Numbered from the stretch's first letter, positions 2,999 to 37,711 are shown. The stretch is 37,711 bases of DNA from Verrucomicrobiota bacterium (GCA_023428335.1 JAEYYS010000114.1:1-37711); one strand, 5' to 3'. Notes: generated from the sequence alone by a model not told the origin. Made by a program: numbers and translations.

Positions 2999-3775
2999 AT
3001 GCTGCGCTTCCTTGGCAGACACGCACTTTCCTCGGTCCACGGCCTGGGCGGTTTTGCCCTGTTCGTGGCGCGCGCCTTTGCCGCCGTCCCGGGGGCGCGC
3101 AAGTTGTTCCATCGCCTGATGCGCGCCGGCCATGAGCAGGGCGTGCGCTGCCTGCCGGTCATCCTCATTGTCGGTCTCTTCACCGGCCTGGTGCTCGGCC
3201 TGCAGGGTTATCATGTGCTCAACCGCTTCGGCTCAGAGGGCCTGCTCGGCACGCTGGTGTCGCTGACCCTGGTGCGCGAACTCGGGCCGGTGCTGGCGGC
3301 GCTCATGCTGGTCGGCCAGGCCGGCTCGGCGCTGGCGGCGGAACTCGGCATCCAGCGCAACAGCGAGCAGATCGCCGCGCTCGACACGATGGGCGTCAAC
3401 AGCCACGCCTATTTGGTGTCGCCGCGCCTGCTCGCCGCGCTGTTCGCCTTTCCGATGCAGACGGCGCTGTTTGTCTGCGTCGGTCTTTTTGGTGGTGCCC
3501 TCTCCGGCTCCCTGCTGCTCGGCCTGTCGCCCGGCGTGTACTGGTCGGCCGTCGAGCGTGCGCTGGAGCCGCGCGACATGGCGGAGTGCTTCACCAAGGC
3601 GGGCGTGTTTGGCCTGCTGACGATTTCCCTGTGCGCCTACCACGGCTTTCACACCCACCGCCTGCGCGGGGTCACCGGCGCGCGCGCGGTCAGCACCGCC
3701 ACCACGCGCGCCGTGGTGCAGTCGAGCATCCTCGTGCTCTGCGCCGACTACGTCATCACCTCCTTCTTCGTCTGA
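2999..3775 (+). CDS. mlaE: MlaE-family ABC permease
   Basis: LVRELGPVLAALMLVGQAGSALAAELG..EQIAAL..MGV..YLVSPR and VSTATTRAVVQS; first gene of the mla cluster. Confidence 0.93.
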   Translation: MLRFLGRHALSSVHGLGGFALFVARAFAAVPGARKLFHRLMRAGHEQGVRCLPVILIVGLFTGLVLGLQGYHVLNRFGSEGLLGTLVSLTLVRELGPVLAALMLVGQAGSALAAELGIQRNSEQIAALDTMGVNSHAYLVSPRLLAALFAFPMQTALFVCVGLFGGALSGSLLLGLSPGVYWSAVERALEPRDMAECFTKAGVFGLLTISLCAYHGFHTHRLRGVTGARAVSTATTRAVVQSSILVLCADYVITSFFV

Positions 3776-3777
3776 CC

Positions 3778-4566
3778 ATGCCCGACCTCCTGCTGCGTGC
3801 CGAAGGCGTCCACAAGCGCTTTGGCGATCTCGTGGTCCTGGCCGGCGCCGACCTCGAGGTGACGCGCGGCAGCATCGTCACCGTGCTCGGCCGCAGCGGC
3901 ACCGGCAAGTCGGTCTTCCTCAAGTGCCTGGCCGGCGTGCTGGCGCCCGAGGCCGGCCGCGTCTGTTTTGACGGTCAGACGCTCGATGCCGCGACCCGCG
4001 CCAGCTTCCGCCGCCGCTGCGGCTACCTGTTTCAAAGCAACGCCCTGTTCGACTCGCTGACCGCCCTGGAAAACGTCGCCCTGCCGCTCGAGCAGTCCAC
4101 CGACCTGCCGGATCGCGAGGTGCGCGAGCGCGCCCTGGAGGCGCTGCAGCAGCTCGGGCTGGAGGCGCATCGCGACCGCCACCCCGGCGAGCTTTCCGGC
4201 GGCATGCAGAAGCGCCTGGCCCTGGCGCGCGCCATTGTCAGCCGGCCGGAGCTGGTGCTGTTTGACGAGCCCACCGCCGGGCTCGATCCGCTGCGCCGGA
4301 ATGACGTCTTCACCATGATCGCCAAGTACCAGCGCCAGTTCGGCTTCACCGCGGTGATCGTCACCCATGACGTCGCCGAGGCCCTGGTGGTGAGCGACCG
4401 CGTGGCCCTGCTTGACAATGGGCGCATGCGGTTTGAGGGAACGCCCGGTGATTTTTCCGCCTCTGCCGACCCGGTCGTGCGGGGCTTTCGCGACAGCGCC
4501 GCCGCCCTCGGCGACACCGTCTCGGCCCTGCGCCGCGGCGAGCCAGCCCCTTCCGAAGACCCATGA
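3778..4566 (+). CDS. mlaF: MlaF-type ABC ATPase
   Basis: Walker A GRSGTGKS, signature LSGGMQKRLALARA, DEPTAGLDP. ATG at 3778 lies just after the mlaE stop. Confidence 0.92.
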   Translation: MPDLLLRAEGVHKRFGDLVVLAGADLEVTRGSIVTVLGRSGTGKSVFLKCLAGVLAPEAGRVCFDGQTLDAATRASFRRRCGYLFQSNALFDSLTALENVALPLEQSTDLPDREVRERALEALQQLGLEAHRDRHPGELSGGMQKRLALARAIVSRPELVLFDEPTAGLDPLRRNDVFTMIAKYQRQFGFTAVIVTHDVAEALVVSDRVALLDNGRMRFEGTPGDFSASADPVVRGFRDSAAALGDTVSALRRGEPAPSEDP

Positions 4567-25533: not shown

Positions 25534-26133
25534 ATGGCAACCTCCATGATTGTTCTGCTGTCGTTGGCCGGCATCGCCGTCCTGCTCGTGCTCTGGGTGA
25601 TCGGCCAGTACAACGGCCTCGTGCGCGGGCGCAACGCCTTCCGCAACGCCTTTGCGCAAATCGATGTCCAGCTCAAGCGTCGCTACGACCTGATCCCGAA
25701 CCTGGTCGAGACCGCCAAGGCCTACCTCAAGCACGAGCGCGAGACGCTGGAGGCGGTCATTGCCGCGCGCAACCAGGCCGCCGGTGCCTGCGCGGCCGCC
25801 GCGGCCAATCCCGGCTCCCCCGCCGCCATGGCGGCGCTGGCCCAGGCGGAGAGCGGTCTCGGCGGCGTGCTCGGTCGCCTGTTCGCCGTTTCCGAAGCCT
25901 ATCCGGAGCTGAAGGCGAATCAGACGATGATGCAGCTCACCGAGGAACTGACCAGCACCGAGAACCGCATCGCCTTCGCCCGTCAGGCCTACAACGATTC
26001 GGTCATGAGCTTCAACAATGCCCGCGAGGTCTTCCCGGCCAACCTGGTCGCCGGCCTCTTCCAGTTCGCCGCCGCCAGCCTGTTTGAGGTGACCCGCGAA
26101 GGCGAGCGCGAGGCGGTCAAAGTCCAGTTCTGA
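25534..26133 (+). CDS. lemA: LemA family protein
   Basis: N-terminal TM helix, YNGLV..NAFAQIDVQLKRRYDLIPNLVETAKAY, EAYPELKAN, ELTSTENRIAFARQAYN, FPANLVA. Confidence 0.96.
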   Translation: MATSMIVLLSLAGIAVLLVLWVIGQYNGLVRGRNAFRNAFAQIDVQLKRRYDLIPNLVETAKAYLKHERETLEAVIAARNQAAGACAAAAANPGSPAAMAALAQAESGLGGVLGRLFAVSEAYPELKANQTMMQLTEELTSTENRIAFARQAYNDSVMSFNNAREVFPANLVAGLFQFAAASLFEVTREGEREAVKVQF

Positions 26134-26170
26134 GCCGTTGGCTGAGTCGATTCCCGACGCTTCGAGTGCG

Positions 26171-28069
26171 ATGGACTTCTTTGCCGCGCAGCAACAGGCC
26201 CTGAAGCGCAGCCGTTGGCTGGTGGTCGGTTTCGCGCTGTGCGTGCTCGGTGTCATCGCCAGCGCCTTTGCCGTGGCGGTGCTGCTCAAGCCCGTGCTCT
26301 TCGACTCCGGCACCGCCACGCCGGTCCTGCGGGGCGTGGCCTCCCCCTGGTGGGATCCGCACCTGCTCGGCTGGGTGGCCGCCACGGTCGGCGGCACCAT
26401 CACCCTCGGCAGCGCCTACAAGCAGGTGCGCCTCGCCGGCGGCGGCAGCGTCGTCGCCCGCGACCTGGGCGGTCGCCCGGTCTCGCCGGGCACGACCGAT
26501 CCCCTGGAGCGCCGCCTGCTCAACGTGGTCGAGGAGATGGCCATCGCTTCGGGGGTGAGTGTGCCGGAGGTGTGGGTGCTCGAGGACGAAGCCGGCATCA
26601 ATGCCTTTGCCGCCGGTACCGATCCGGCCAACGCGGTGATCGGCGTCACCCGTGGCTGCCTGGAACAGCTCACGCGCGCCGAGCTGCAGGGCGTCGTCGC
26701 CCACGAGTTCTCCCACATCGTCAACGGTGACATGCGCCTCAACCAGCGGCTCATCGGCTGGGTGTTCGGCCTGATCATGGTGGCCACGGCGGGGCGACTC
26801 ATCCTTGAATCGCTGCGCCACGTGCGCGTTCGCTCGTCGCGCGACTCCCGCGGCGCGGGCGGGCTCGTGCTGGCCCTGCTCGTGGCCGGTCTGGCCCTCT
26901 GGTTGATCGGCTCGATCGGCACCTTCTTCGCCCGCCTGCTGCAGGCGGCGGTGTCGCGCGAGCGCGAGTTCCTCGCGGATGCCGCGGCGGTGCAGTTCAC
27001 CCGCGAGCCCTCCGGCATCGCCGGCGCCCTGAAAAAGATCGGCGGCCACTCGGCCCATGGCGTTCTGCACCACGGTCAGGCGGGCGAGGCCCGGCACCTG
27101 TTTTTTGTCGCCAGCGACTTCCTCCGCCTGGGGCTGGCCACGCATCCGCCCCTGCCGGAGCGCATCCGGCGCCTGGAGCCGTCGTGGAACGGCGTCATGC
27201 TGCAGCCGGTCAGGCGCGGCACCGCGGAGGAGACGATCCGGCCGCTCGCGCCGGCGCCGCCCGTGCTGCCCCTGGTGAAAACCCTGGGTTTCACCGAACG
27301 CATCGATCCGGCCGTCGGCAGCGCGGTGCGCGAGCTGCTGCAGGCCGAACAAAAGCGCCTCGCCTCCCGCGCGGACGCCCAGGCCCTGCTCTTCGGTCTG
27401 CTCATCGGCCGCGATGAGGCAGCCTGCCAGGGCGCCCTGGTCCGGCTCGCTGAACACGGCGGCGACACCCTTGTGCAGCAGGCGCTCGACTGGAGCCGGC
27501 GCCTGCGCGGGCGTCGCTCCCTCGAAAAACTCGCCCTCCTGGATCTGGCCCTGCCCTGGTTGCGTCATCTGGGTCGCGAGGGCGCCCGCGAGTTCATCGA
27601 GCTGACCCGCGCCTTCATCGCCGCCGACGGCCAGCTCGATGCCTTCGAGTTCATGCTGCAGAAGGTGATCGAGCGCCAGGTCGCGGTCGGCGCGGGGTTG
27701 CGTCCCCTGGTGCCGGTGCGCCATGCCTCGCTGCGCTCGGTGCATGCCGAGGCGGCGACCCTGCTTCAGGCCTTCGCCCAGGTGTCGGGCCATCCCGAGG
27801 CCCTGAGCGCCGCGGCCGCAGAGTTTCAGCAGCACACCGGACAGCCGTTGCCGCCCGCGCCCGCAACCTTGCTGCCTCTGGCAGAAGTGGCCGCCGCCCT
27901 CAAGGAACTCGAGGCCGCCACCCCGATGGTCAAGAGCGCCCTGCTGCGCCTCGGCGTGCGCATCGCCCTTCATGATGGGCATCTCAACGACGAGGAACTG
28001 GAACTGCTGCGCGCCACCGCCGAAGCCATCGGCGCCCCCGTCCCGCCGCTCGCCCGCGTGATTCGGTGA
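26171..28069 (+). CDS. M48 (HtpX-like) membrane zinc metalloprotease with a C-terminal extension
   Basis: LLNVVEEMAIASG, INAFAAG, VVAHEFSHI (HExxH), SREREFLADA, ATHPPLPERI; the usual lemA partner. Confidence 0.92.
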   Translation: MDFFAAQQQALKRSRWLVVGFALCVLGVIASAFAVAVLLKPVLFDSGTATPVLRGVASPWWDPHLLGWVAATVGGTITLGSAYKQVRLAGGGSVVARDLGGRPVSPGTTDPLERRLLNVVEEMAIASGVSVPEVWVLEDEAGINAFAAGTDPANAVIGVTRGCLEQLTRAELQGVVAHEFSHIVNGDMRLNQRLIGWVFGLIMVATAGRLILESLRHVRVRSSRDSRGAGGLVLALLVAGLALWLIGSIGTFFARLLQAAVSREREFLADAAAVQFTREPSGIAGALKKIGGHSAHGVLHHGQAGEARHLFFVASDFLRLGLATHPPLPERIRRLEPSWNGVMLQPVRRGTAEETIRPLAPAPPVLPLVKTLGFTERIDPAVGSAVRELLQAEQKRLASRADAQALLFGLLIGRDEAACQGALVRLAEHGGDTLVQQALDWSRRLRGRRSLEKLALLDLALPWLRHLGREGAREFIELTRAFIAADGQLDAFEFMLQKVIERQVAVGAGLRPLVPVRHASLRSVHAEAATLLQAFAQVSGHPEALSAAAAEFQQHTGQPLPPAPATLLPLAEVAAALKELEAATPMVKSALLRLGVRIALHDGHLNDEELELLRATAEAIGAPVPPLARVIR

Positions 28070-28080
28070 GGTGGGTGGAG

Positions 28081-28461
28081 GGGGCCTACGGAAGACACGG
28101 AAAGCCCGGAAGGGCAGGGAGGCAGAGGTGGCAGTCGGGAGGCTTCACCGGCTAGGGCGGAGCGGAAGTTTTGAACCGAAAACCCCGAAAAGGAAGAGTC
28201 CGCAGATTTCGCAGATTTTCAGAGGTGAACCCAGCGGCGCGTAGTGCACCGCCTAGGCGCATGGAGTGACGAGCGACTCCCTGCCAAATTGGACATTCCT
28301 TGTTCGATATTGGCTATTCCAGATTGGACGGATCGGAAGTTTCGAACCGCTGATGGGACGCTGATGCGGAAGGGGAGGGGCGGCTCCCGTAGCGGAAAGT
28401 GTCCGGCTTCCCGGACTTGGGGGGCGTGGCGCACCGTCTAAACCCTGCGGTTGGAAACCGC
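28081..28461 (+). repeat. composite intergenic repeat R, copy 1 (~380 bp)
   Basis: Colinear with 29177-29556 through GGGCCTACGG, ACCCCGAAAAGGAAGAG, CGCAGATTTTCAGAGGTGAACCCAGCGGCGCG, TTGGACATTCCTTGTTCGATATTGGCTATTCCAGAT, AACCGCTGATGGGACGCTGAT, GGCTCCCGTAGCGGAA and CTGCGGTTG.AAACCGC. Confidence 0.92.
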
Positions 28462-28470
28462 TATCGTTTG

Positions 28471-28496
28471 CATAAAAGCATATTGATGCTTTTATG
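28471..28496. promoter_or_regulatory. palindromic operator upstream of vapBC
   Basis: Perfect 11-bp inverted repeat CATAAAAGCAT-ATTG-ATGCTTTTATG, AT-rich, 4 nt before the antitoxin ATG; typical position for TA autorepression. Confidence 0.75.
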
Positions 28497-28500
28497 TTTC

Positions 28501-28755
28501 ATGAGGACGACCTTGGATCTACCAGATGAGCTCTTTCGCCAGCTCAAGGCGGAGGCGGGTTTGAGTGGTCGCAAGCTGAAGGACCTCGTCACGGAATTCA
28601 TTGAGCGCGGCCTGGCAGCCCGGTCGGCCACGCCCGCACGGTCGCGCAGTCCCTTGCCGATGGTGCGACCTCCCACGGGCAGGCCGCACCCGGCCCTGAG
28701 CAACGCCGAGTTGGAGAGCCTGCTCACCTTGGAGGATTCCCATGCCGGCTCGTGA
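28501..28755 (+). CDS. vapB: RHH-type antitoxin (VapB-like)
   Basis: MRTTLDLPDELFRQLKAEA..LKDLVTEFIERGL ribbon-helix-helix N-terminus; overlaps the PIN toxin gene. Confidence 0.85.
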   Translation: MRTTLDLPDELFRQLKAEAGLSGRKLKDLVTEFIERGLAARSATPARSRSPLPMVRPPTGRPHPALSNAELESLLTLEDSHAGS

Positions 28756-29176
28756 CCTGCCCGATCTGAATGTCTGGCTGGCCTTGGTCGATGCTGACCA
28801 TCAGCACCACGCCCGTGCCCGCCACTACTGGCAAACCGAGGCGGCGGAGCTGGTGGCCTTTTGCCGCGTTTCCATGCTCGGGCTGCTGCGCCTGCTCAGC
28901 CATGCCAAGGTCATGCGCGGTGCTCCCTTCACCCCCGCGCAAGCCTGGCAAGCCTATGAGGCCTTTCGCGCCCTGCCCGAAGTCACCTTTCTGGCGGAGC
29001 ACCCACGGCTGGAGTCACAGTTCCGAGCCTGGACCGATCGACCCGACTTCCCCCCGCATCGCTGGACGGATGCCTGGCTGGCTGCCCTCGCCGCCACCAC
29101 CGGCAGCCGCCTCGTCTCCTTCGACAGCGATTTCCACAGCTTCCCCGGTCTCGCTTTTCTCCATCTCGCGGCTTGA
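28742..29176 (+). CDS. vapC: PIN-domain toxin (VapC)
   Basis: LPDLNVWLAL..HQHH, WTDAWLAALA, LVSFDSDF: conserved PIN acidic residues. Confidence 0.92.
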   Translation: MPARDLPDLNVWLALVDADHQHHARARHYWQTEAAELVAFCRVSMLGLLRLLSHAKVMRGAPFTPAQAWQAYEAFRALPEVTFLAEHPRLESQFRAWTDRPDFPPHRWTDAWLAALAATTGSRLVSFDSDFHSFPGLAFLHLAA

Positions 29177-29562
29177 GGGCCTACGGTACAGACGGAAAAC
29201 CCGGAAGGGTTGGGAAGCTGTCGCGGAAGTCATGAGACCTCTCCGACTTGAAAAACGCAGAGGTTTTCAACCGCTGACCCCGAAAAGGAAGAGTTCGCAG
29301 ATTTTCAGAGGTGAACCCAGCGGCGCGGAGTGTACCGCTTGGACGCGTGGAACGACTAGTGACTCCCTTCGAACTTGGACATTCCTTGTTCGATATTGGC
29401 TATTCCAGATCGGACGGGTCGGAGGTTTGGAACCGCTGATGGGACGCTGATGGGACGCTGATGCGGAAGGGGAGGATCGGCTCCCGTAGCGGAAGTTGTC
29501 CGACTTTCCGGACTTGGGGGCGTGTTCTTCCGTCCGAATCCTGCGGTTGAAACCGCAGCCAC
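29177..29562 (+). repeat. composite intergenic repeat R, copy 2
   Basis: Starts immediately after the vapC stop and has the same module order as copy 1, ending CTGCGGTTGAAACCGCAGCCAC. Confidence 0.92.
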
Positions 29563-29612: not shown

Positions 29613-30191
29613 ATGCGCGTTTCGACCGACTGGCTGTACCCCCGCTTCACCTGGCGGCAGGGGTTGGGCATGATGGGTTTTGGCCTGGTCGGGGCCGGGA
29701 TCGCGGGCGCCTATGGCATCCTGCACGATCAGGTCACCTTCACGCTGTCGCCGGAGTATTTCACGCACTTCAAGTTCGACCAGTTCGACTACCTCGATGA
29801 CACGCTGTCGCCGCGCGTGCGGGTGGCGCAGATCGGGTTTTTGGCGACCTGGTGGGTGGGCTTTTTCGCCGGCTGGTTCATGGGCCGCGTCACCCTGCCG
29901 CACCTGCCCGCAGCAACCGCCGCGCGCCAGGCCCTGCGCGCCGTCTCGGTCATGCTCGGCCTGGCCCTGGCCTCGGGCCTCGCTGGCGGCGTCTTCGCGC
30001 CCCAGGACCCCGACCGCCTGCAGGCCTGGCAGGCCTTCCTCGACCTGCGCGGCGTCACCGACCCCGCCGCCTTCGTCCGCGTCGGCTGGATCCACAACGG
30101 CAGCTATCTCGGCGCCCTGCTTGGCCTGATCCTTGCCCTGCTCTGGCTGCGCCGGGCAAGGCGACAGGTTTCCTCAACGCAAGCCCAGTGA
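29613..30191 (+). CDS. hypothetical multi-pass membrane protein
   Basis: Four or so hydrophobic segments; conserved-looking AGAYGILHDQVTFTLSPEYFTHFKF, GFLATWWVG and VGWIHNGSYLG; host-like codon usage. Confidence 0.8.
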   Translation: MRVSTDWLYPRFTWRQGLGMMGFGLVGAGIAGAYGILHDQVTFTLSPEYFTHFKFDQFDYLDDTLSPRVRVAQIGFLATWWVGFFAGWFMGRVTLPHLPAATAARQALRAVSVMLGLALASGLAGGVFAPQDPDRLQAWQAFLDLRGVTDPAAFVRVGWIHNGSYLGALLGLILALLWLRRARRQVSSTQAQ

Positions 30192-30368
30192 TCCGCAGAT
30201 TTCGCAGATTTCAGAGGTGAACCCAGCGGCGCGGAGTGTGCCGCCTGGGCGCATGGAATGGCGAGCGACGCCCCTTCGAACTTGGACATTCCTTGTTGGG
30301 TATTGGGTGTTCCGATCGGATGAGGCGGAGGTTTTGAACCGCTGATGAGACGCTGATGAGACGCTGAT
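30190..30368 (+). repeat. composite intergenic repeat R, copy 3 (partial)
   Basis: TCCGCAGATTTCGCAGATTTCAGAGGTGAACCCAGCGGCGCG..CTTGGACATTCCTTGTT..AACCGCTGATGAGACGCTGAT; begins at the stop codon of the membrane gene and lacks both ends of R. Confidence 0.88.
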
Positions 30369-30460
30369 CTGAATGAGCAAGTGAACCGGAGATGTCGCCG
30401 ATGGGCGCAGATGTTCTTTGTGGTGGCCACCTCCGTGCTCATCGGCGTCATCGGTGGTCC

Positions 30461-30600
30461 AAACCCGCGACACCACCGCCAGTCTTCCTCGCGTGGAACC
30501 CAAGGTTACCCGACTTGTCCGTCGTAGCCTTGGCGAAGACGAATGGCCTCGGCGTATTCGAGGCTCTGGGATAGAATGATTTGTGTTCCTCTGGAGTGCT
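30461..30600 (-). pseudogene. hsdR: degenerate hsdR 5' fragment (stub 5)
   Basis: Reads STPEEHK / ..LEYAEAI[RLRQGYDGQV]G* ..VPREE..RGF with a frameshift, a stop and no ATG; aligns with the other stubs. Confidence 0.6.
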
Positions 30601-30606
30601 CGGGGA

Positions 30607-30681
30607 TCAAAGGGCTCGCGACCTCCGTAGCCCGCAGGATGAAGGAGGTTGGACGGTTTTGTGTTCTCCGGGTGTGGGCAT
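30607..30681 (-). pseudogene. hsdR: hsdR 5' fragment (stub 4)
   Basis: MPTPGEHKTVQ[PPSSCGLRRSR]AL*; ATG lies 2 nt after the DUF262 gene stop. Confidence 0.7.
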
Positions 30682-30683
30682 GG

Positions 30684-32561
30684 TCAGCCAGCAGTGACGG
30701 TTGCATCTTCGTCCTCCTGATCCGCAGGCATTTCACTAGGAACCGGATTTCGAGATTTCCAACGTCCTTTGATCCAATCGACAATCTTATCCCGACGGAT
30801 TTGTGATTCCTTGGCCGTCCAGTCCAAGTAAGCGGCGACATCGCGCTCCTGCCGTATATCCGAATGGATGTAGCTAGGACCCTTTCCTGCAACGCCCCTC
30901 TTTTTTTCGAAGTCGAAATTCAGGTAATTTGAATTGTTCTGGGTGAGCACCAAATTGCCGAGATCATGCAGGTGCATCTTCATTTCATCGAGCGTCCATT
31001 TCATGACCCAATCCGAACCTGAATCGGGAGTTTGGGGCAGAATGTGCTCTATCGTAGAGTCGCTCATGATGCCGTCCCAAGAAAGCGCAGGCCCTTTACC
31101 TTTGCCCTCGGCACCCAAAAGGTGAAGCTCATATTCGAAAAGCGTGTAGCGAAGCAGGCCGCGATGGGCATACCAGTTGTCAGGCCTGCTGATCCATGCC
31201 ACGAAGCCGGCCTCAGGAGAGTATTCTTCCATGAGACCATAAATCCAAGAAGTGACATCGGGCACATTGTGCCGTCCGCTGAAAATGTCATCCGCCCACC
31301 GGTGGAAGCTGGATTTACCAGCATTGCTTCTTTTTCCTTCGAAAAGGAAAACGCGGTAAGCATAGCACTCCAGGGCACTCAGCAGAGAACAGTAACTCTC
31401 CGCGTCTGCTTTGCCTTCTTCCACCTTGATTCGGACCGCTGTCATCAGAGGCAGGAAATTGGCAATGTTGCCGGTGTGGTGGATCTTGGTTAGCCAGCGA
31501 AACTCCTCCGCTGAAACACAGTCCGTTGCAGATGGATTCACGATCCGCGAATAGTGCATCGAAACCAGTGCCAATCCCTCCGCAAACCGTTCGAGAAAGG
31601 CCTGCGTTTCCTCCTTGGTCTTGTATCGAGCGGTTTCCATCTTCGTGGAATCGCGAAAATTGCGAAGCGGAATATAGGCATCCCCCTTGAACCCGCTGTA
31701 ACCATCCCAATTCTTGGGTGGGTAGGTGCAGTAAAGCGTCCACGCGACACGCAGACATTGATCCTCCCGGCCGAGACCTCGCGTCGTGCCGATGTTGGTG
31801 TAGGTGTCCCTCCAGCACTTGTTGACTAATTGCGTCAGTGCCTCTCGTGCATCGGCAGACGCATTCCGGTAGACCCAATGCATCAGGTAGTTCTTCAAAA
31901 GCTCCAGCACTGAAAGTCCCTTCCCCCGCGAGTTCATCAATTCGAACGTCATGCCGATCTCGGACTCCTCTTCAATCGTGTAGAACGTGAAAACCAACTT
32001 TTGTGTGATCGCTTCGTAAAGCCCCTTCAGGTATGCAACTCCATCCTCTCCCTTGGCCGCAAGCCGATTGTCAATGTGCCGCTTGAGGTATTGATGCGCT
32101 TCCGCCAACCGCACTTGATGCGTTGAAGCCGGTGCAGTTCGTGGAGATCCCGATTTGATCAAGTCATGATATAGGTCCTGCGTATCATTGTTCAATGTGA
32201 GCTTCGTCGTGGCAGACGCATACAAGAAAAGCGGAATCTCCTGCCCGAAATCCTTCTCGCCGATGCCGATGAGCTTGTGAGTCAAGATCGACAAATAGAG
32301 GCTGACAGTTGTCAAACGCTGCTGCCCATCGACGACATCCACCCTCTTCAAGCGGCCGAGATGATATGGCCTAGGAGCGTCTTTGCCTTCGTAGGTAACC
32401 ACTGTCCCGGTGTAGTGAGCTGTGATATTGTCCTCCACCAATGCATCGAGATCCTGAATGAATTCGGCCCATTGCTGCTCCTCCCAAGCGTAACCTCGCT
32501 GGTAGCTTGGAATCTGGAAAAGGTTCGGGGTGAGCAGCTGTCTCAGTGTTTGTTTTTGCAT
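30684..32561 (-). CDS. DUF262-DUF1524 (GmrSD/SspE-like) defence nuclease
   Basis: IPSYQRGYAW, VVDGQQRLTT, FELMNSRGKGLS..LLKN (DUF262); TIEHILPQ..LGNLVL..NS (HNH-like DUF1524); visibly lower GC than the host genes. Confidence 0.9.
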   Translation of the reverse strand: MQKQTLRQLLTPNLFQIPSYQRGYAWEEQQWAEFIQDLDALVEDNITAHYTGTVVTYEGKDAPRPYHLGRLKRVDVVDGQQRLTTVSLYLSILTHKLIGIGEKDFGQEIPLFLYASATTKLTLNNDTQDLYHDLIKSGSPRTAPASTHQVRLAEAHQYLKRHIDNRLAAKGEDGVAYLKGLYEAITQKLVFTFYTIEEESEIGMTFELMNSRGKGLSVLELLKNYLMHWVYRNASADAREALTQLVNKCWRDTYTNIGTTRGLGREDQCLRVAWTLYCTYPPKNWDGYSGFKGDAYIPLRNFRDSTKMETARYKTKEETQAFLERFAEGLALVSMHYSRIVNPSATDCVSAEEFRWLTKIHHTGNIANFLPLMTAVRIKVEEGKADAESYCSLLSALECYAYRVFLFEGKRSNAGKSSFHRWADDIFSGRHNVPDVTSWIYGLMEEYSPEAGFVAWISRPDNWYAHRGLLRYTLFEYELHLLGAEGKGKGPALSWDGIMSDSTIEHILPQTPDSGSDWVMKWTLDEMKMHLHDLGNLVLTQNNSNYLNFDFEKKRGVAGKGPSYIHSDIRQERDVAAYLDWTAKESQIRRDKIVDWIKGRWKSRNPVPSEMPADQEDEDATVTAG

Positions 32562-32952
32562 GGAACTTGAAATTTGGAATGATTTGCTCTCACCCTCTGC
32601 TGCACGAACGCCAGGTCGCGCTCGCGCTTCTCCTCGTGGTCGAAGAACTTGCCCCGGTTGCGCAGGTGCTCGACGAATTCCCGCTTGCCGTAGATGTCGG
32701 TGTGGAGATGGCGGAACTGCCCGAGCAACGCGCCCTCGGCCTCGGCATAGCGCGGGTTGAACTCCCGCACCTTGGCATCAAGCAGGTCGTCGAAGAACAG
32801 GCTCGCATTCGTCATTTGGCCTTCGCCATTCGTCATTGCGGCGATCCCTCGCCGCCTTTCGGCTTCCTCTTTTGTGACAAAAGACCACCCGATCTCCTGC
32901 GCATAGGCAGGATCCGAGCTTGAACCGTCTTATGTTCTCCAGGTGTGCTCAT
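32543..32952 (-). pseudogene. hsdR: hsdR 5' fragment (stub 3, longest, frameshifted)
   Basis: MSTPGEHKTVQARI / one base missing near 32910 / AYAQEIGWSFVTKEEAERRRG..ASLFFDDLLDAKVREFNPRYAEAEGALLGQFRHLHTDIYGKREFVEHLRNRGKFFDHEEKRERDL. Recognised as a type I HsdR N-terminus; similarity appears to end near 32612. Confidence 0.78.
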
Positions 32953-33089
32953 GGGTGATCAAAGGCCTCCTGACCTCCATAGCTGGAACAGCGACGGAGG
33001 TCGGCGTAGGCGAGGATCCGGGCTCCAGACCGCCTTAGCCCGAAGGGCGAAGGAGGTTGGACGGTTTTGTGTTCTCCGGGTGTGGTCAT
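32949..33089 (-). pseudogene. hsdR: hsdR 5' fragment (stub 2)
   Basis: MTTPGEHKTVQ[PPSPFGLRRSG]ARILAYA[DLRRCSSYGGQ]EAFDHP*; ATG lies 6 nt after the upstream stop and its TGA overlaps the stub 3 ATG. Confidence 0.75.
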
Positions 33090-33095
33090 AAGACA

Positions 33096-33995
33096 CTATT
33101 TCCGTTTTCGCCTGATTAGAGGCCTGTGGTCTTCCGCGACGGAGATTCGGGCTAAGAGCTCGAGAAAATTGGGCCTTGGTGACGGTAAATTCATCTCCTC
33201 TCGGGTCACCATTTCTGGCCACCGCTCATGCGTTTTCAACCACTTCACCAACTCCTTCTCAGCTGAGCGTGTCTCTGCGGAACCACGCATATTTCGCCGC
33301 AGAAGCTGAAGGAACAGGCACCACAGGTAGGCTCCGTAAACAAGGCCGAAACTCTGATAATAGAGATCAAAGTTGGATGCATCGAATCTAGGTTTTTTGG
33401 GGTCATCCGACCAGCCAAAACGGAGAAGAACAGCGGGATTGAAGTGAACAATGTCACAAGAAAACCGATAGAAAAACTCGTAGACTTCAGAAATGCCAGC
33501 CTTCTTGGCCATCTGCCACGTAGAAGGCGCGATGCTGTCAGGTTTTAGATTGAATCCGAGTGCCTTCCAAAGTGGATGAATCGCCGCAACGTGCTTTGGA
33601 AGGACGGTTTGATCTGACGTGGCTAGAATATTCTGAAAAGGTCTATTCTTCCGGAAAAAAGACGTCTGTGTGAGAACATTCGTATGGATCTCGTGCGCTA
33701 GCCAATTTGACAAGATGTCGTCGCGTTGAGTATTCGGAACATCCTGCAGCAAGCTCAGAACGATAAGATCCTCGCAGCTGCCGCGCAGTGTGCCAGCAAT
33801 GAAGAAAGCGGGAATTGGCTCTTTCTGTAATGAGAGCCTAATAATCGAAGCGTTGAAGTCGAACAGCTTCGAGAGCGCTGACCGAACACAGCAATCAAAC
33901 ATTCGCCCCTTCCTGAGCCCTCCGACTCGTCGGGTTTCCAGCCAAGGATCAAATTTTGCGTATATAGCCTGCAATTCTTTGGCGGCTTTCTTCAT
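33096..33995 (-). CDS. hypothetical protein, DUF5677/HEPN-like, candidate defence gene
   Basis: Intact 299-aa lower-GC ORF, predicted helical, with LRGSCED and YEFFYRFSCDIVH (Rx6H) motifs. Confidence 0.6.
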   Translation of the reverse strand: MKKAAKELQAIYAKFDPWLETRRVGGLRKGRMFDCCVRSALSKLFDFNASIIRLSLQKEPIPAFFIAGTLRGSCEDLIVLSLLQDVPNTQRDDILSNWLAHEIHTNVLTQTSFFRKNRPFQNILATSDQTVLPKHVAAIHPLWKALGFNLKPDSIAPSTWQMAKKAGISEVYEFFYRFSCDIVHFNPAVLLRFGWSDDPKKPRFDASNFDLYYQSFGLVYGAYLWCLFLQLLRRNMRGSAETRSAEKELVKWLKTHERWPEMVTREEMNLPSPRPNFLELLARISVAEDHRPLIRRKRK

Positions 33996-34126
33996 AGGCG
34001 ACTATGCAATGGGGTGAATCCGCGCCGCCGCTCGGCTTCCTCACGGGACACCATCGTCCAGCCAATGGTCTCGGCGTAGGCGAGGATCCGGGCTTGGACG
34101 GTTTTGTGTTCTCCGGGTGTGGACAT
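33992..34126 (-). pseudogene. hsdR: hsdR 5' fragment (stub 1)
   Basis: MSTPGEHKTVQARILAYAETIGWTMVSREEAERRRGFTPLHSRL* (44 aa); ATG lies 9 nt after the CD-NTase stop and its TGA overlaps the next ATG. Confidence 0.8.
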
Positions 34127-34135
34127 GTCTGCGAT

Positions 34136-35590
34136 CTACATGATGTTGACAACGAAAGGACCGCTTCGGGCCAAGCAGACCTCGTCGCGGACGACAAAAA
34201 ACTCAACCCAGTGCATTCCCCGGTAAAGCGTGCGTTCGTTCCTCGAGGGCCTCTCGATCATCGTCGTGCTGCGAAGCCCTGATTGCCCAACCGAACCGGA
34301 TGGAACGATCTGCCCCCGGTGGCAGCCCTTAGAAACGGCGTCTGTGCCCGTATTGACGACTTGCCAATAAACTTGGTATGGCGGCGGCACATTGGTTTCA
34401 CCGAAGAATCGGAGATACAAATGCTTGTCGAGCGCAGGTCCGTTGTTTGGGAACTCCCTCCAGTTGATTCCATGTTCACTGGTGTTCCATCTTCCGCGTA
34501 TCGTCGCGGTGTGACTGTTCAGCATGGGCCACGGAGGCTTCTCTGCCCAAGGCACATCGAATACAGACCTACCCGCATTCGCTGCTACAGCCTCGGATTT
34601 AACCACCCTTGTCGCTTCATCGTATTCCGCAAAGAAACCGTCACTCTTAAAAACCCAATCCCAGACGGCCCGTGCATCCTTTTCAGTCTCCTTCGAGCTT
34701 TCATCCAACACCTCGATCTCCCGGAGTGCTTCCTGAATCTTTTCCTGCAAAGCCACGACATTATCGTCGCAAGTAGTGCGAGTGATCATCGGTTGTTCGG
34801 GATGTGCGCGGTTATGAATAGCCTTGTTTAAATCAAGGCGTTCATCAATCCGTTCGAGAAGGCACCGAAATGCGACATCGATCCTTGCCTCGTAAGGTGG
34901 CTGACACTCATCGACAAGCATCGATAGCTTCATGCCGTTCGGTAGCAATTCGAGCCAGTCTTTTCTACTCCGACAGAAACGCTTCAAGAGTTGGATAAGA
35001 TTCCGGAACTGAGTCCCCCAGCCGTCTACCGCCTTATTACGATCTGCGACGATAGTGTTGAACCAGTCGTTTACTTGGGTGGGGTTTGATCGAACCCAAT
35101 TTGATTCCGATGCAAGTTCCTGCACTACTTCATTGTCTTCGGTCGTCCACCGGCGATAAACAGGAAAGTCCACGTGATGCTTTTCCTCGTCTTTGTCCGC
35201 GTAAAATACTCGAACACAATTCGTGAAGAGTTTCGGCTGACGGTTAAATCGTTTGTCCTTCAACGCATCTCGGACGGCCTCCCTCACTTCTGATGAGGTC
35301 ATTTCGCTGCCATCAGCTTTTTTGAGCTGGCTTCTCGTGATCAATAGCCCATCGTCGATGTCATATTCCTCATCGACAAACTTGGTCTGAACGACAGTGC
35401 CCATAGCAACAGAACCTTGAGGCTTGAAGTTGCTCTCACCGATACTGGCACGCGGAATAAAGTCCGAAAGACGGCTAATCAGGCGGTCTCTGTTCGCCTT
35501 TCGACGGTCAAGCAATTTATCCTTGAACAGCGAGGGTAGTCTGACCCGTTTGTCGCGAAATGCTTCCAGTTGGACGGAATAATCGAACAT
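34136..35590 (-). CDS. CBASS cGAS/DncV-like nucleotidyltransferase (CD-NTase) with a C-terminal AGS-C domain
   Basis: QGSVAMGT..YDIDDG, HVDFPVY, SNP..WF, LLKRF (SMODS core); LDKHLYLRF..YWQVVNTG..RGQI..ERTLYRGMHWVEFFVV (AGS-C). Confidence 0.9.
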   Translation of the reverse strand: MFDYSVQLEAFRDKRVRLPSLFKDKLLDRRKANRDRLISRLSDFIPRASIGESNFKPQGSVAMGTVVQTKFVDEEYDIDDGLLITRSQLKKADGSEMTSSEVREAVRDALKDKRFNRQPKLFTNCVRVFYADKDEEKHHVDFPVYRRWTTEDNEVVQELASESNWVRSNPTQVNDWFNTIVADRNKAVDGWGTQFRNLIQLLKRFCRSRKDWLELLPNGMKLSMLVDECQPPYEARIDVAFRCLLERIDERLDLNKAIHNRAHPEQPMITRTTCDDNVVALQEKIQEALREIEVLDESSKETEKDARAVWDWVFKSDGFFAEYDEATRVVKSEAVAANAGRSVFDVPWAEKPPWPMLNSHTATIRGRWNTSEHGINWREFPNNGPALDKHLYLRFFGETNVPPPYQVYWQVVNTGTDAVSKGCHRGQIVPSGSVGQSGLRSTTMIERPSRNERTLYRGMHWVEFFVVRDEVCLARSGPFVVNIM

Positions 35591-35592
35591 CG

Positions 35593-36345
35593 TTAGGTTG
35601 CGCTAAGGGTTCGGGCATACGCCATCCAATCGACAGCAGGCACGGTCGCCAGCGATTGCAGCTTCGAAAGAAGGCGAAACGCAAAGTAGGCGAGTGCGTT
35701 TTCCTTCGGGCCGAAAGTGTAGGCATTCTCACCATCAAAAACATCAAAACAGGAGCCGCTTGCGGCAAATCCGCAATCCAGCCTGAGGTCGCCGATCAGT
35801 GTTGAATGATTCTCACGAAAGCTTTCGCTCAGGCCGTCCGTCCATCCCACCTCAGTTGCGAGAATACCAGCAATGATTGAGAACGGCTTTTTCGCAGGGA
35901 GGACACCACCTGCGTGATGAATTTCAACTGAGGTCCGATGCAGTATGCGAACAGACTGTGCCTTCTTGGCCGCATATTCCAAATACTCCTTATCGATCTT
36001 TGGCTTGCACTCGAAGACAGCGTAAACCGCCTCAGCCGGAACGTAGCGGTGTTTGTCGTTATCAAGCAGCGTCGGAGTGTATTGGCGGTCGAAGACGACC
36101 ACATCGATCGAATGGCTCACTGCGCCGGTGCTATCGATCACAATTGCCTTCTCCACCGTGTAGCGGTTCGGAAGGTAGGCCCGGAGGAAATCGATGAAGA
36201 ATTGCTCGTTCACCTCGCCCCTGTCTCCTTTGTGCGTGATCCGGAGTGATGACTTCAGGTTTGCCAACAAGCACGTTTGTTCAGATGCAAACGCATCCCG
36301 TAGAAATTGAGCATTTGCCTGAGGTGTGTCGTCTTCTGGTTCCAT
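35593..36345 (-). CDS. nucC: NucC cyclic-oligonucleotide-activated endonuclease
   Basis: HKGDRGEVNE..YLPNRY, IDVVVFDRQYTP, VPAEAVYAVFECK (ID..ExK active site), SVRILHRTS..HAGG, LQSLATVPAVD..AY match NucC along its length. ATG at 36345 is preferred over TTG at 36375. Confidence 0.92.
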   Translation of the reverse strand: MEPEDDTPQANAQFLRDAFASEQTCLLANLKSSLRITHKGDRGEVNEQFFIDFLRAYLPNRYTVEKAIVIDSTGAVSHSIDVVVFDRQYTPTLLDNDKHRYVPAEAVYAVFECKPKIDKEYLEYAAKKAQSVRILHRTSVEIHHAGGVLPAKKPFSIIAGILATEVGWTDGLSESFRENHSTLIGDLRLDCGFAASGSCFDVFDGENAYTFGPKENALAYFAFRLLSKLQSLATVPAVDWMAYARTLSAT

Positions 36346-36355
36346 AAGTCGATAG

Positions 36356-36636
36356 TTAGAATGAAAGTGCTCCAACGCGGGTCTTCGCGGTCATCAGTTC
36401 GTGAAGGAGGGTGTGGAAGAGGTTTGGAGTTGGCTTTGCATTCGGCCCGTGGTTTCAGGCTTCAGGTTAAAACCTGCCCGGCAGTCCGCCATCGCGGACT
36501 GCTCGTCGCGCGAAGGTGGCGAGGACTTCCCGACTGTGATCCCTGGAACTTTGGCCATGGCTATGTCGGACTGGCCGGTGACTCCGTGTGAGCCAGCCAC
36601 TGGGAGGGGCCTCACGCGAATCTCCCCGGGCTTCAT
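36356..36636 (-). pseudogene. hsdS: hsdS remnant (C-terminal conserved region; target recognition domains deleted)
   Basis: PPSRDEQSAMAD..QSQLQ / -1 frameshift near 36423 / LFHTLLHELMTAKTRVGALSF* matches the typical HsdS ending (P..EQ..IA..L..LF..LLHELMT.K.RV). ATG overlaps the KilA-N stop. Confidence 0.72.
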
Positions 36637-37475
36637 TCCGCGCCTCCCTTCAACTGCTTCACCGTCCGCGCGGTGAGGGTCTGCATCTGGCGGATGGCGA
36701 TGGCATTGAGGCGTTTCAGGCGGTCGCTTTGCGGCAGCCCCATGTGGATGAACTCGGCGTTCATGTTCTCTAGGTTCGCTAGGACGAGGAGTTGCTCCAG
36801 CGTGGCGTGATCGCGCATGTTGCCCTCCAGGCCGGGGTTGGCGTCGCGCCATTCGCGGGCGGTCTGGCCAAAGAGGGCGACGTTGAGCAGGTCAGCTTCA
36901 TTGGCGTAGGTGATGGCAGCCTGCTTCGCGGTGACCTCGGGCGGGATGAGGTGGGTCTGGATGGCGTCGGTATGGAGACGGTAATTGATCTTCGCCAGGG
37001 TGCGGTTGAGGTTCCAAGCGAGGGAGAGGCGGCGGTTCTCGTCTTCCTTGAGACGCTGGAATTCCTTGATCAGGTAGAGTTTGAATTCCACCGAGACCCA
37101 TGAGGCGAATTCAAAGGCCACATCGATGTGGGCGTAGGTGCCTCCGTAGCGCCCTGCTCTGGAGACGAGGCCAGTGGCGGCGGTCTTCTCGATCCACTGC
37201 TTCGGGGTGAGGGTGAAGCTGTTCAGGCCGGCCTGTTTTTTAATCCCGTCGAATTCGACGGGATTAAAACCGGGGTTGTGGAGTTGCTCCCAGATGCCGA
37301 GGAGCTCCAGTGTGTTGCGGTTGCGGAGCCAGTTGCGAATGAGGTCGTCCGGGTGATCGGCATTCTTCGACTTGGCGATGTCCGTGAGCGAAATGTAGTC
37401 CTCGTTTCCGTGTCGGATGATGGTGATCTCCGTGTCCCTCACGTGGATCGTGGCGCTGGTCGGCTTCTTTTTCAT
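36633..37475 (-). CDS. KilA-N domain DNA-binding protein
   Basis: DYISLTDIAK..IRNWLRNRNTLELLGIWE..NPGFNPVEFDG, SRAGRYGGTYAHIDVAFEFASWVSVEFKLYLIKEFQRLK; this family is often embedded in type I RM loci. Confidence 0.92.
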   Translation of the reverse strand: MKKKPTSATIHVRDTEITIIRHGNEDYISLTDIAKSKNADHPDDLIRNWLRNRNTLELLGIWEQLHNPGFNPVEFDGIKKQAGLNSFTLTPKQWIEKTAATGLVSRAGRYGGTYAHIDVAFEFASWVSVEFKLYLIKEFQRLKEDENRRLSLAWNLNRTLAKINYRLHTDAIQTHLIPPEVTAKQAAITYANEADLLNVALFGQTAREWRDANPGLEGNMRDHATLEQLLVLANLENMNAEFIHMGLPQSDRLKRLNAIAIRQMQTLTARTVKQLKGGAE

Positions 37476-37555
37476 GCTGCGATCCTCCTGCGGATGCTTC
37501 CGAGGGCATCCCAGATCCTGGATTTGAGGGCCGTGGTCTTGGCAGTGGCAGGCAT
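37472..37555 (-). pseudogene. hsdM: probable hsdM 5' stub
   Basis: MPATAKTTALKSRIWDALGSIRRRIAA* resembles the HsdM N-terminal L.S.IWDAA.SIRG helix; TGA overlaps the KilA-N ATG. Confidence 0.5.
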
Positions 37556-37661
37556 GAAGATCTTGAGAGTGTTCCCTATTCAAGCGGCATGGGCAACTTT
37601 AGGCAAGCGCATCAGTCCAGAGATTGCCTGTTTCCGTGGCGTTTCCAGTCGCAAGACAAGA

Positions 37662-37688
37662 GATCCGCAGATTGCGCAGATTTCAGAG
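37662..37688 (+). repeat. 27-bp direct repeat of 30190-30216
   Basis: GATCCGCAGATTGCGCAGATTTCAGAG versus GATCCGCAGATTTCGCAGATTTCAGAG (1 mismatch). Confidence 0.85.
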
Positions 37689-37711
37689 AGGGCTTGTGGA
37701 GAGGTGAAAGG

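Follow-up and report, generated by a model that had tools for sequence, protein, structure and literature searches.

Stacked defence genes separated by hsdR 5′ remnants in the hsdS–hsdR slot of a Verrucomicrobiota bacterium

The 37,711-nt stretch of DNA analyzed here, referred to as the window, is the entire contig C63 (JAEYYS010000114.1) of a Verrucomicrobiota bacterium, whose genome bin (GCA_023428335.1) consists of 522 contigs totaling 3.83 Mb and is 74.6% complete. Close to one end it carries, on the minus strand, an array of three defence units: a NucC-type endonuclease gene paired with a cGAS/DncV-like nucleotidyltransferase (CD-NTase) gene, a DUF5677-like gene and a GmrSD-family type IV restriction gene. 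Each unit is followed by one or two truncated copies, here called stubs, of the 5′ end of the type I restriction gene hsdR, and the array appears to fill the hsdS–hsdR slot of a type I restriction operon that is otherwise gone. Defence genes between hsdS and hsdR are already known; what sets this array apart is their stacking into units separated by hsdR 5′ stubs.

The stubs share an exact 27-mer that occurs three times on the minus strand, at 34120–34094, 33083–33057 and 30675–30649, with none expected from 100 dinucleotide-preserving shuffles and no further exact copy elsewhere in the 3.83-Mb assembly. The corresponding stub ATGs at 34126, 33089 and 30681 follow the stops of three different defence genes by 9 nt (CD-NTase, open reading frame (ORF) end 34136), 6 nt (DUF5677, 33096) and 2 nt (GmrSD, 30684), respectively. 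These positions and gaps, first reported in an initial annotation made from the sequence alone, were reproduced by sequence search and ORF coordinates. A fourth copy of the 27-mer, with 5 mismatches out of 27, has its ATG at 32952 and opens stub 3, and a fifth, degenerate copy with small indels and without an ATG lies at about 30598–30542 in stub 5.

Stub 1 (33992–34126, minus strand, as are all five) retains about 111 nt of the hsdR 5′ end within a 44-codon ORF. Stub 2 (32953–33089) is a composite of hsdR nucleotides 1–33, a 33-nt filler, another 23 hsdR nucleotides and 48 nt of filler and leader that run into stub 3, and it includes the repeat families D1, D2 and D5. Stub 3 (32543–32952) has about 340 nt of a distinct hsdR allele (amino acids 1–117), frameshifted after codon 15, and terminates in a short leader overlapping the start of the GmrSD gene. 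Stub 4 (30599–30681) consists of hsdR nucleotides 1–33 of the allele found in stubs 1 and 2, followed by a filler and a leader related to those of stub 2; it holds a copy of the 70-nt repeat D5 that is 89% identical to the stub-2 region. Stub 5 (30505–30598), delimited by alignment with three loci of other genomes (L048, L151 and L033), comprises about nucleotides 4–63 of hsdR and a 37-nt filler, and its sequence marks it as an old degenerate copy. Within the allele of stubs 1, 2 and 4, the sole difference over 33–56 nt is at nucleotide 4, the first base of codon 2. The divergence among the stubs had initially been taken to suggest different donors or ages.

ATGA overlaps join three successive ORF pairs, namely stub 1 and the DUF5677-like gene (33992–33995), stub 2 and the first ORF of stub 3 (stub 3a; 32949–32952), and stubs 3a and 3b (32833–32836), so that a chain of short ORFs bridges the cargo genes of the window. 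The idea that stubs survive in general as translated bridging ORFs was dropped, as in 11 stubs of other arrays the distance between the stub ORF and the following long ORF varies between −224 and +252 nt.

Sequence similarity search with the 120-residue read-through of stub 3, starting just after the frameshift, yielded 1383 protein matches at E ≤ 1e-3, the best with an E value of 7.7e-55 and 86% identity to a full-length HsdR. The best listed matches are 68–86% identical and mostly belong to proteins of ~970 residues with HSDR_N, SWI2_SNF2 and T1R_D3 domains, several of which are named HsdR by their source; the N-termini of the HsdR matches carry PGEHKTVQ followed by RIL.YA..IGW. Using a 973-residue HsdR (P0056) as the tblastn query, stub 1 aligned with residues 1–39 (82% identity), and stub 3 with residues 1–15 (93%) and 17–117 (77%), the frameshift lying in between. 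Stubs 2, 4 and 5 were assigned to hsdR via their nucleotide identity to stubs 1 and 3. By homology, the stubs are hsdR 5′ ends encoding HsdR N-termini, in agreement with the initial annotation. None of them matched Pfam HSDR_N (E ≤ 1) or NCBIfam hsdR (E ≤ 0.1), because they are too short and end before or early in the domain, which does not speak against an hsdR origin. Among solved structures, no sequence match to stub 3 was found.

The other border of the array is a frameshifted 3′ remnant of hsdS at 36356–36528 on the minus strand. Five HsdS proteins of the family used as tblastn queries aligned at 61–81% identity over the last 21–26 residues, in addition to a weaker upstream piece, and the remnant ends in the conserved C-terminal helix of the family. 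The segment 36374–36433 is 96–98% identical over 48–61 nt to hsdS 3′ ends in three other loci (L149, L150 and L151). As this remnant sits directly upstream of the NucC gene, the array has an hsdS 3′ end as one border and hsdR 5′ ends as the other: all cargo lies on the minus strand between the hsdS remnant and the hsdR starts (34126 to 30598), in the order also seen in intact relatives. Judged from these borders, the array is the hsdS–hsdR cargo slot of a type I restriction operon. That this interval is a known cargo slot, as the initial annotation had put it, is borne out by our own loci and by the embedded genes described in PMC12255303, PMC11411939 and PMC12707154.

No functional type I restriction–modification (RM) operon remains, since hsdS is reduced to a remnant and hsdR lacks its body. 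HSDR_N and TIGR00348 profiles matched nothing in the whole 74.6%-complete assembly, and N6_Mtase or hsdM was absent from the 20 ORFs scanned at 18.7–37.7 kb, the rest of the genome not having been searched for hsdM. As a working accumulation platform in this genome, which had been the initial proposal, the locus is dead.

The first cargo unit consists of a NucC-type endonuclease gene with a DUF6602 domain (35593–36375, minus strand; Pfam E 4.5e-31; PADLOC NucC E 2.6e-91, profile 4–241 of 244), whose true start is likely the ATG at 36345, and a CD-NTase gene with DncV-like nucleotidyltransferase and AGS-C domains in Pfam (34136–35590, minus strand; PADLOC cyclase E 3.6e-119, profile 1–453 of 455). 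The pairing of the CD-NTase with an upstream NucC-type effector, both recognized by PADLOC profiles, predicts a two-gene cyclic oligonucleotide-based antiphage signaling system (CBASS). The second unit is the DUF5677-like gene (33096–33995, minus strand), which encodes 299 residues and matches the Pfam profile with an E value of 2e-9, and the third is the GmrSD-family gene (30684–32561, minus strand) of 625 residues, with GmrSD_N (E 3e-31) and GmrSD_C (E 2e-14) domains and a PADLOC HEC-06 match (E 5.6e-53). The genes preceding the stubs had been described as intact; this stands for the CD-NTase, with its nearly complete profile, and for the GmrSD gene, with both domains, while the DUF5677 match is partial (33–164 of 166). 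A metagenome scan with the DUF5677 protein found one contig of 1,044 nt with uninformative context. The minus-strand ORFs are closely packed, those of NucC and CD-NTase being 2 nt apart, and may be expressed as one operon. In 1-kb windows, the GC content is 51–58% across the array and 51–59% at 30–37 kb as a whole, compared to about 63–71% in the rest of the window and about 68% for the host.

The locus was found in one close relative, G123, a genome of the same genus, which lacks the array. Contig C148 of G123 matches the window at 25981–29451 (96% identity), 30197–30461 (86%) and 36506–37681 (95%), and the last two matches are 2 nt apart in G123, such that a 6-kb segment with the whole array (30462–36505) is missing between matching flanks. 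The weak part of the hsdS remnant seems to run on across the G123 junction, for which reason we read G123 as a deletion derivative, although this is not certain. Since no other close relative has the locus, the gain or loss of single units among close relatives, anticipated in the initial annotation, could not be seen.

The combination of stubs and cargo is not peculiar to this genome. A degenerate DNA pattern for EHKTVQxRIL, scanned in contigs of one genome per species, matched at least 134 stretches in at least 119 contigs, which represent many phyla, among them Verrucomicrobiota, Pseudomonadota, Nitrospirota, Chlorobiota and Acidobacteriota. Among the matches listed, 16 of 119 contigs have two or three hsdR starts each, always on the same strand. 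In all five array genomes searched whole, an 18-nt core of the motif was found at a single locus and on one strand, with no match for the reversed control. In line with the absence of the 27-mer elsewhere in the present assembly, the stubs are confined to the restriction locus rather than being a genome-wide repeat. An even sample of 401 genomes of the phylum of the window contains 19 with the core motif, this genome included (reversed control, 8 matches).

Five arrays fetched from other genomes share the order cargo, stub, cargo and hsdR, and in four of them an intact hsdR is followed by YgjP. The array L135, from a Nitrospirales record titled as a chromosome, consists of dapF, hsdM, KilA-N, RhuM, hsdS, four Qat-like genes, a stub (amino acids 1–32), a gene for a 712-residue helicase-like protein plus DUF2290, a second stub (1–33), an M78 peptidase gene, hsdR (973 residues) and a YgjP-like peptidase gene. 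The Qat-like set of L135 (5110–9808), comprising a KAP NTPase, one unknown protein, a QueC-like protein and TatD, is the first of three cargo units, and the helicase-like gene plus DUF2290 is the second. Similarly, L136 has hsdS, PHP + AAA_21, a stub (1–36), a YhcG nuclease gene, a stub (1–14), Fic, hsdR and YgjP. The arrays L137, L138 and L139 are analogous, with cargo such as Polbeta nucleotidyltransferase, HipA, AAA_21/15, DUF3800, AAA_13 and YhcG, and the contig end of L139 falls inside hsdR. No tandem second restriction operon was present within the stretch fetched for eight loci with full-length hsdR. The stub–cargo pattern is general across phyla: serial units of cargo and hsdR start, initially proposed for the window, are stacked in many genomes and end in an intact hsdR.

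Of the 80 loci with 2-kb flanks, only about ten have hsdS, hsdM or an hsdM–hsdS fusion immediately 5′ of the hsdR start, and many others have variable cargo of the defence or toxin–antitoxin kind at this place, including HipA, Fic, YhcG, UvrD-like, HerA, GmrSD, AAA_13, TIR with STALD, RhuM, Schlafen-like and deaminase genes.

Some of these loci have further peculiarities. Several HsdR variants (P0005, P0013, P0055, P0070 and P0083; L136:6853–10599; L149:8619–12386; L022:1707–3530) contain an in-frame IS200-like Y1 transposase domain (PF01797) and are 1226–1327 residues long, compared to ~973. The insertion point, at about residue 222, separates the nuclease domain from the motor domain. The insert is flanked by short palindromic-repeat-like sequence, and the frame is open through it in several genomes. 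In L033, a Fic gene is flanked on both sides (1986–2180 and 3740–3880) by the same composite of filler, an internal hsdR fragment (about amino acids 194–221) and a host repeat, the first copy of which comes after a 21-codon hsdR stub. In L023 (785–2041, minus strand), an hsdR stub (amino acids 4–31) opens a frame running into a MinC gene with a HipA gene upstream, and this slot remnant adjoins host cell-division genes.

Two junctions of the window recur in other genomes. The DUF5677-like gene has a homologue in a Verrucomicrobiae contig (L034/L035), with 66–76% protein identity and apparently frameshifted there. In the window and in this other genome, the gene starts 131 or 135 nt after a stub ATG, and in both the next hsdR ATG is placed 6 nt past the DUF5677 stop; in L035 this hsdR is full length. 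The composite of stub 5 and its filler has aligning counterparts in L048, L033 and L151, and blastn across the junction gave 85.5% identity for L048 and 81% for L151. In L151, which belongs to the genus of the window, a Gabija-like gene pair precedes a full-length hsdR, and about 20 nt separate the composite from the hsdR downstream of it. These shared junctions indicate that the stubs of the window are leftovers of arrangements intact elsewhere, and that stub–cargo units can persist or travel as units.

Pooling hsdR starts, in a non-random sample that includes the purposely fetched arrays, gave 158 distinct starts, 68 of which continue into the gene and 50 run off the locus; the other 40 are stubs, ending at codons 21–127. 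In 15 alignments of a stub against the downstream hsdR copy, representing 14 distinct stubs as one was counted in two overlapping loci, the breaks are at 38, 41, 65, 70, 79, 92, 95, 98, 104, 116, 116, 169, 253, 319 and 370 nt. The two sequences are 79–94% identical (6–21% divergence) in 13 of these 15, and two very short stubs (33 and 38 nt) are identical to their downstream copy; the divergence of stubs from the neighboring hsdR would fit different donors. Beyond the break, even loci with one and the same cargo type differ in sequence from genome to genome: in Fic loci the shared part starts only at a palindromic element upstream of the gene, and YhcG genes are joined at different places, once within the coding sequence. 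In L135, one stub is separated from the cargo that follows by a stretch with about 70 nt of another hsdS 3′ end, the only extra hsdS end among the array loci listed; incoming DNA that started within a donor hsdS is expected to leave such a trace.

Neither a recombinase nor a recurrent recombination site was recognized at the array. A Phage_integrase model for tyrosine recombinases found nothing on C63 (4 matches on other contigs), IntI-type recombinases were absent from the ORFs flanking the five fetched arrays, and no Rfam family was detected in the array region. Filler segments, four in number and hairpin-like by eye, sit next to stubs 2, 4 and 5, and other junctions lack them. Compared to shuffled sequences, the second stub-2 filler folds well (−10.3 kcal/mol, z −3.5), the first marginally (z −1.3) and the others no better (z −0.1 and +0.5). 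As hsdR resumes after the first stub-2 filler, this one does not mark a joint but was inserted into a dead stub. The fillers have no other copy in this genome by blastn-short, which would fit an array assembled in another host, and the L135 and L137 arrays have no such fillers at their breaks. The integron-like platform suggested in the initial annotation is thus wrong, or at least unproven, as a site-specific system: stub break points are scattered over codons 21–127, leaders differ for one cargo type, a single filler of four folds well, the contig has no integrase, and where a conserved attC-like site would follow each cargo there are hsdR fragments of variable length.

Altogether, general recombination fits the data better than a dedicated system. 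We propose, as the probable route albeit with modest confidence, that the units were stacked, in the slot of a very mobile type I RM family, by recombination with one end anchored by homology in the conserved hsdR and the other joined illegitimately, and that the hsdR stubs are the scars of these acquisitions. Each 5′ remnant would then mark an earlier hsdR that once followed the cargo to its left. Incoming DNA with a leader, cargo and hsdR from a related locus would pair with the resident hsdR by homologous recombination, while its non-homologous other end would undergo illegitimate joining at a position no more than a few hundred bases into the resident gene, as in homology-facilitated illegitimate recombination. 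The outcome would be the order of old cargo, resident hsdR stub, new cargo and complete hsdR; repeated rounds would stack further units, the newest adjoining hsdR. The stubs might decay through frameshifts, short filler insertions and deletions, and may travel with their neighbors. In the present case, the array would have reached the genome from a source of lower GC content and lost its restriction genes afterwards, leaving an orphan row of packed defence genes. One-sided recombination of this kind would account for the variable breaks, for the divergence of stubs from the neighboring gene, for an hsdS remnant turning up now and then, for the absence of a recombinase, and for the one intact hsdR that closes every complete array. 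The different left junctions of one cargo type, as in YhcG and Fic, also appear to favor it.

Several observations weigh against one-sided recombination. No stepwise gain has been observed, as one close relative has the locus and the entire array is missing there. In the even phylum sample, one of the 18 other motif genomes has two copies on one contig, which makes arrays a minority outcome of a common arrangement. Stubs 1, 2 and 4 are of one allele, which is easier to reconcile with a single handle or donor lineage used several times than with donors unrelated to one another, and two junctions (stub–DUF5677 and stub 5 with filler) are common to several genomes, as a cassette model predicts. 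Microhomology at the illegitimate joint would be the hallmark of the pathway, but the cargo leaders are too diverged between genomes for any junction to be compared with both parents. Moreover, 27 of the 40 stubs end at codons 21–40. A purely random illegitimate join does not give such an excess of short stubs, which calls for selection against long HsdR fragments, erosion, or a preference for the conserved first ~100 nt. The short-stub excess, the three identical stubs and the shared junctions are not explained by one-sided recombination alone and fit a RecA-dependent form of the initially proposed cassette idea, in which the first ~35 hsdR codons and the conserved last ~20 hsdS codons serve as portable handles. 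Cargo between two hsdR starts would be looped out by RecA recombination and re-inserted, as a circle or a linear stub–cargo–stub piece, into another hsdR start, across phyla. The spacing kept around the DUF5677-like gene (131 and 135 nt to the left, 6 nt to the right), the stub-5 junction found in four genomes, the ending of most stubs just within or after the conserved N-terminal block and the somewhat higher conservation of third positions in codons 6–10 (0.76–0.85, compared to about 0.4–0.7 later, in 136 distinct hsdR starts) all agree with this idea. We nevertheless regard it as unlikely, given that the left junctions of YhcG and Fic differ among genomes, most stubs diverge by 6–21% from the adjacent hsdR start, handles of 33–120 nt are so short that RecA recombination would be inefficient, and no circles or precise excisions have been observed; as for the additional synonymous conservation, it is slight and could stem from translation initiation.

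Less probable still is the decay of tandem hsdM–hsdS–cargo–hsdR operons, from which deletions would have removed the redundant hsdR bodies, hsdM and hsdS. The hsdS 3′ remnant between stub and cargo in L135 is what such decay could leave, erosion would account for the short-stub excess, and deletion clearly acts at the locus, as seen from G123 and from the lack of a detectable hsdR in this assembly; but the eight fetched loci with full-length hsdR have no tandem complete operons, most stub-to-cargo gaps are devoid of hsdS or hsdM remnants, and the decay would require repeated deletions of 6–7 kb, each sparing both neighboring cargo genes. Recombination directed by sites or hairpins, with the palindromic fillers as sites resembling attC or repetitive extragenic palindromes and perhaps the HsdR-embedded Y1_Tnp domain of several relatives acting on them, seems very improbable. 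Fillers at four stub ends in the window, related ones in L033, L048 and L151, and the one that folds well would suit it, whereas the folding of the other three, the insertion of the first stub-2 filler into a stub rather than at a joint, the filler-free breaks of L135 and L137 and the absence of fillers elsewhere in this genome do not; nor is there a Y1 transposase or integrase among the window ORFs scanned, or an Rfam match. An assembly artefact, by which strains sharing the hsdR start and differing in cargo were wrongly concatenated in a short-read metagenome bin, is scarcely credible: the bin is indeed fragmented and incomplete, but exact repeats between the stubs reach about 30 nt at most, the flanks are unique to each stub, and many assemblies made independently share the architecture, among them records whose titles declare a single chromosome, e.g. 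OZ244578.1 with three copies. As to mechanism, two recombination routes remain, one-sided joining and handle-mediated shuffling, which are separable by experiment.

The upstream neighbor of the array is a KilA-N domain gene (36633–37583, minus strand; Pfam KilA-N E 2e-21), a PADLOC candidate of the PDC-S22 type (E 2e-134), which is also present in the array-less G123 with 94% amino acid identity. It might stem from a former hsdM–KilA-N–hsdS operon like that of L135 but is no proof of one, as its upstream neighbor in G123 is an M20 peptidase gene and the KilA-N homologues of the family have no clear hsdM or hsdS within 1.5 kb, save one weak (23%) methylase match. Its coding sequence contains a perfect palindrome of 16+16 nt (37238–37269); across several genomes of the family, these 32 nt are 97–100% conserved in the KilA-N gene. 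A host intergenic repeat with tandem CATCAGCG motifs has copies at 28300–28370, 29290–29460, 30190–30400 and 37650–37711, which flank the island and end the contig; a 39-nt segment is 90% identical between 30178–30216 and 37650–37688, and one copy is located at the deletion joint in G123. Between two of these copies, in DNA of host GC content, a PIN-domain gene with a small upstream ORF (28742–29176, plus strand) likely encodes a toxin–antitoxin pair.

The array resembles several known systems in part. Like an integron, it is a one-directional row of mostly promoterless, unrelated adaptive genes with a repeat after each, beside a conserved anchor next to which the newest unit presumably lies; it differs in that the contig has no integrase and the repeat is a coding fragment of 21–127 codons, not a structured attC. 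Where genomic islands accumulate in tandem at a tRNA gene, every integration leaves behind a partial copy of the tRNA 3′ end. Such islands and the array have in common the serial accretion by a conserved gene, truncated copies at the unit borders and one intact copy that is kept, whereas the islands show exact att sites made by a tyrosine integrase, and the copies here vary in length, stem from the 5′ end of a protein gene and come with no recombinase. Homology-facilitated illegitimate recombination occurs in naturally transformable Acinetobacter and Streptococcus pneumoniae. It likewise combines a one-sided anchor with an illegitimate join and gives variable breaks near the anchor with no dedicated enzyme, but we found no published link between it and the build-up of defence genes in restriction operons.

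Closest are the defence genes embedded in RM operons, which share the slot between the hsdS 3′ end and hsdR, the kind of cargo, the strand and the tight packing, and whose catalogue already includes GmrSD-like and KilA-N (PDC-S22) genes. Examples are prrC within the EcoprrI type I operon (PMC12707154), TgvAB of Vibrio cholerae pathogenicity island VPI-2 (PMC11411939) and DarTG2 of enteropathogenic Escherichia coli, where the site was called “a potential recombination hotspot” (PMC12255303). As these papers describe them, such loci have one unit per operon and no hsdR remnants, in contrast to the stacked units, each with a stub, of an operon that is gone. A “guilt-by-embedding” survey (Payne et al., bioRxiv 10.1101/2024.01.29.577857), according to its account of the filtering, removed systems with pseudogenes, so that arrays of this kind would have been filtered out. 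A search of full texts, with supplements and subscription journals outside its reach, found nothing on defence genes separated by tandem hsdR 5′ fragments; the matches for “truncated hsdR” concern staphylococcal elements and strains.

On the question of how defence genes enter type I operons and become stacked, tandem hsdR 5′ remnants provide a readable record of successive acquisitions. They preserve the order of events and the borders of units, and they make the mechanism testable by comparing junctions across large sets of genomes, by probing its dependence on recA and by transformation assays. A further use is as a search key: any gene flanked by two hsdR starts becomes a candidate for a defence function, as do the DUF5677 protein and the unannotated cargo of other arrays. 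Surveys that discard loci with pseudogenes would miss such arrays. If hsdR starts do act as handles, the slot would be an integrase-free functional analogue of the integron that assembles stacks of defence genes.

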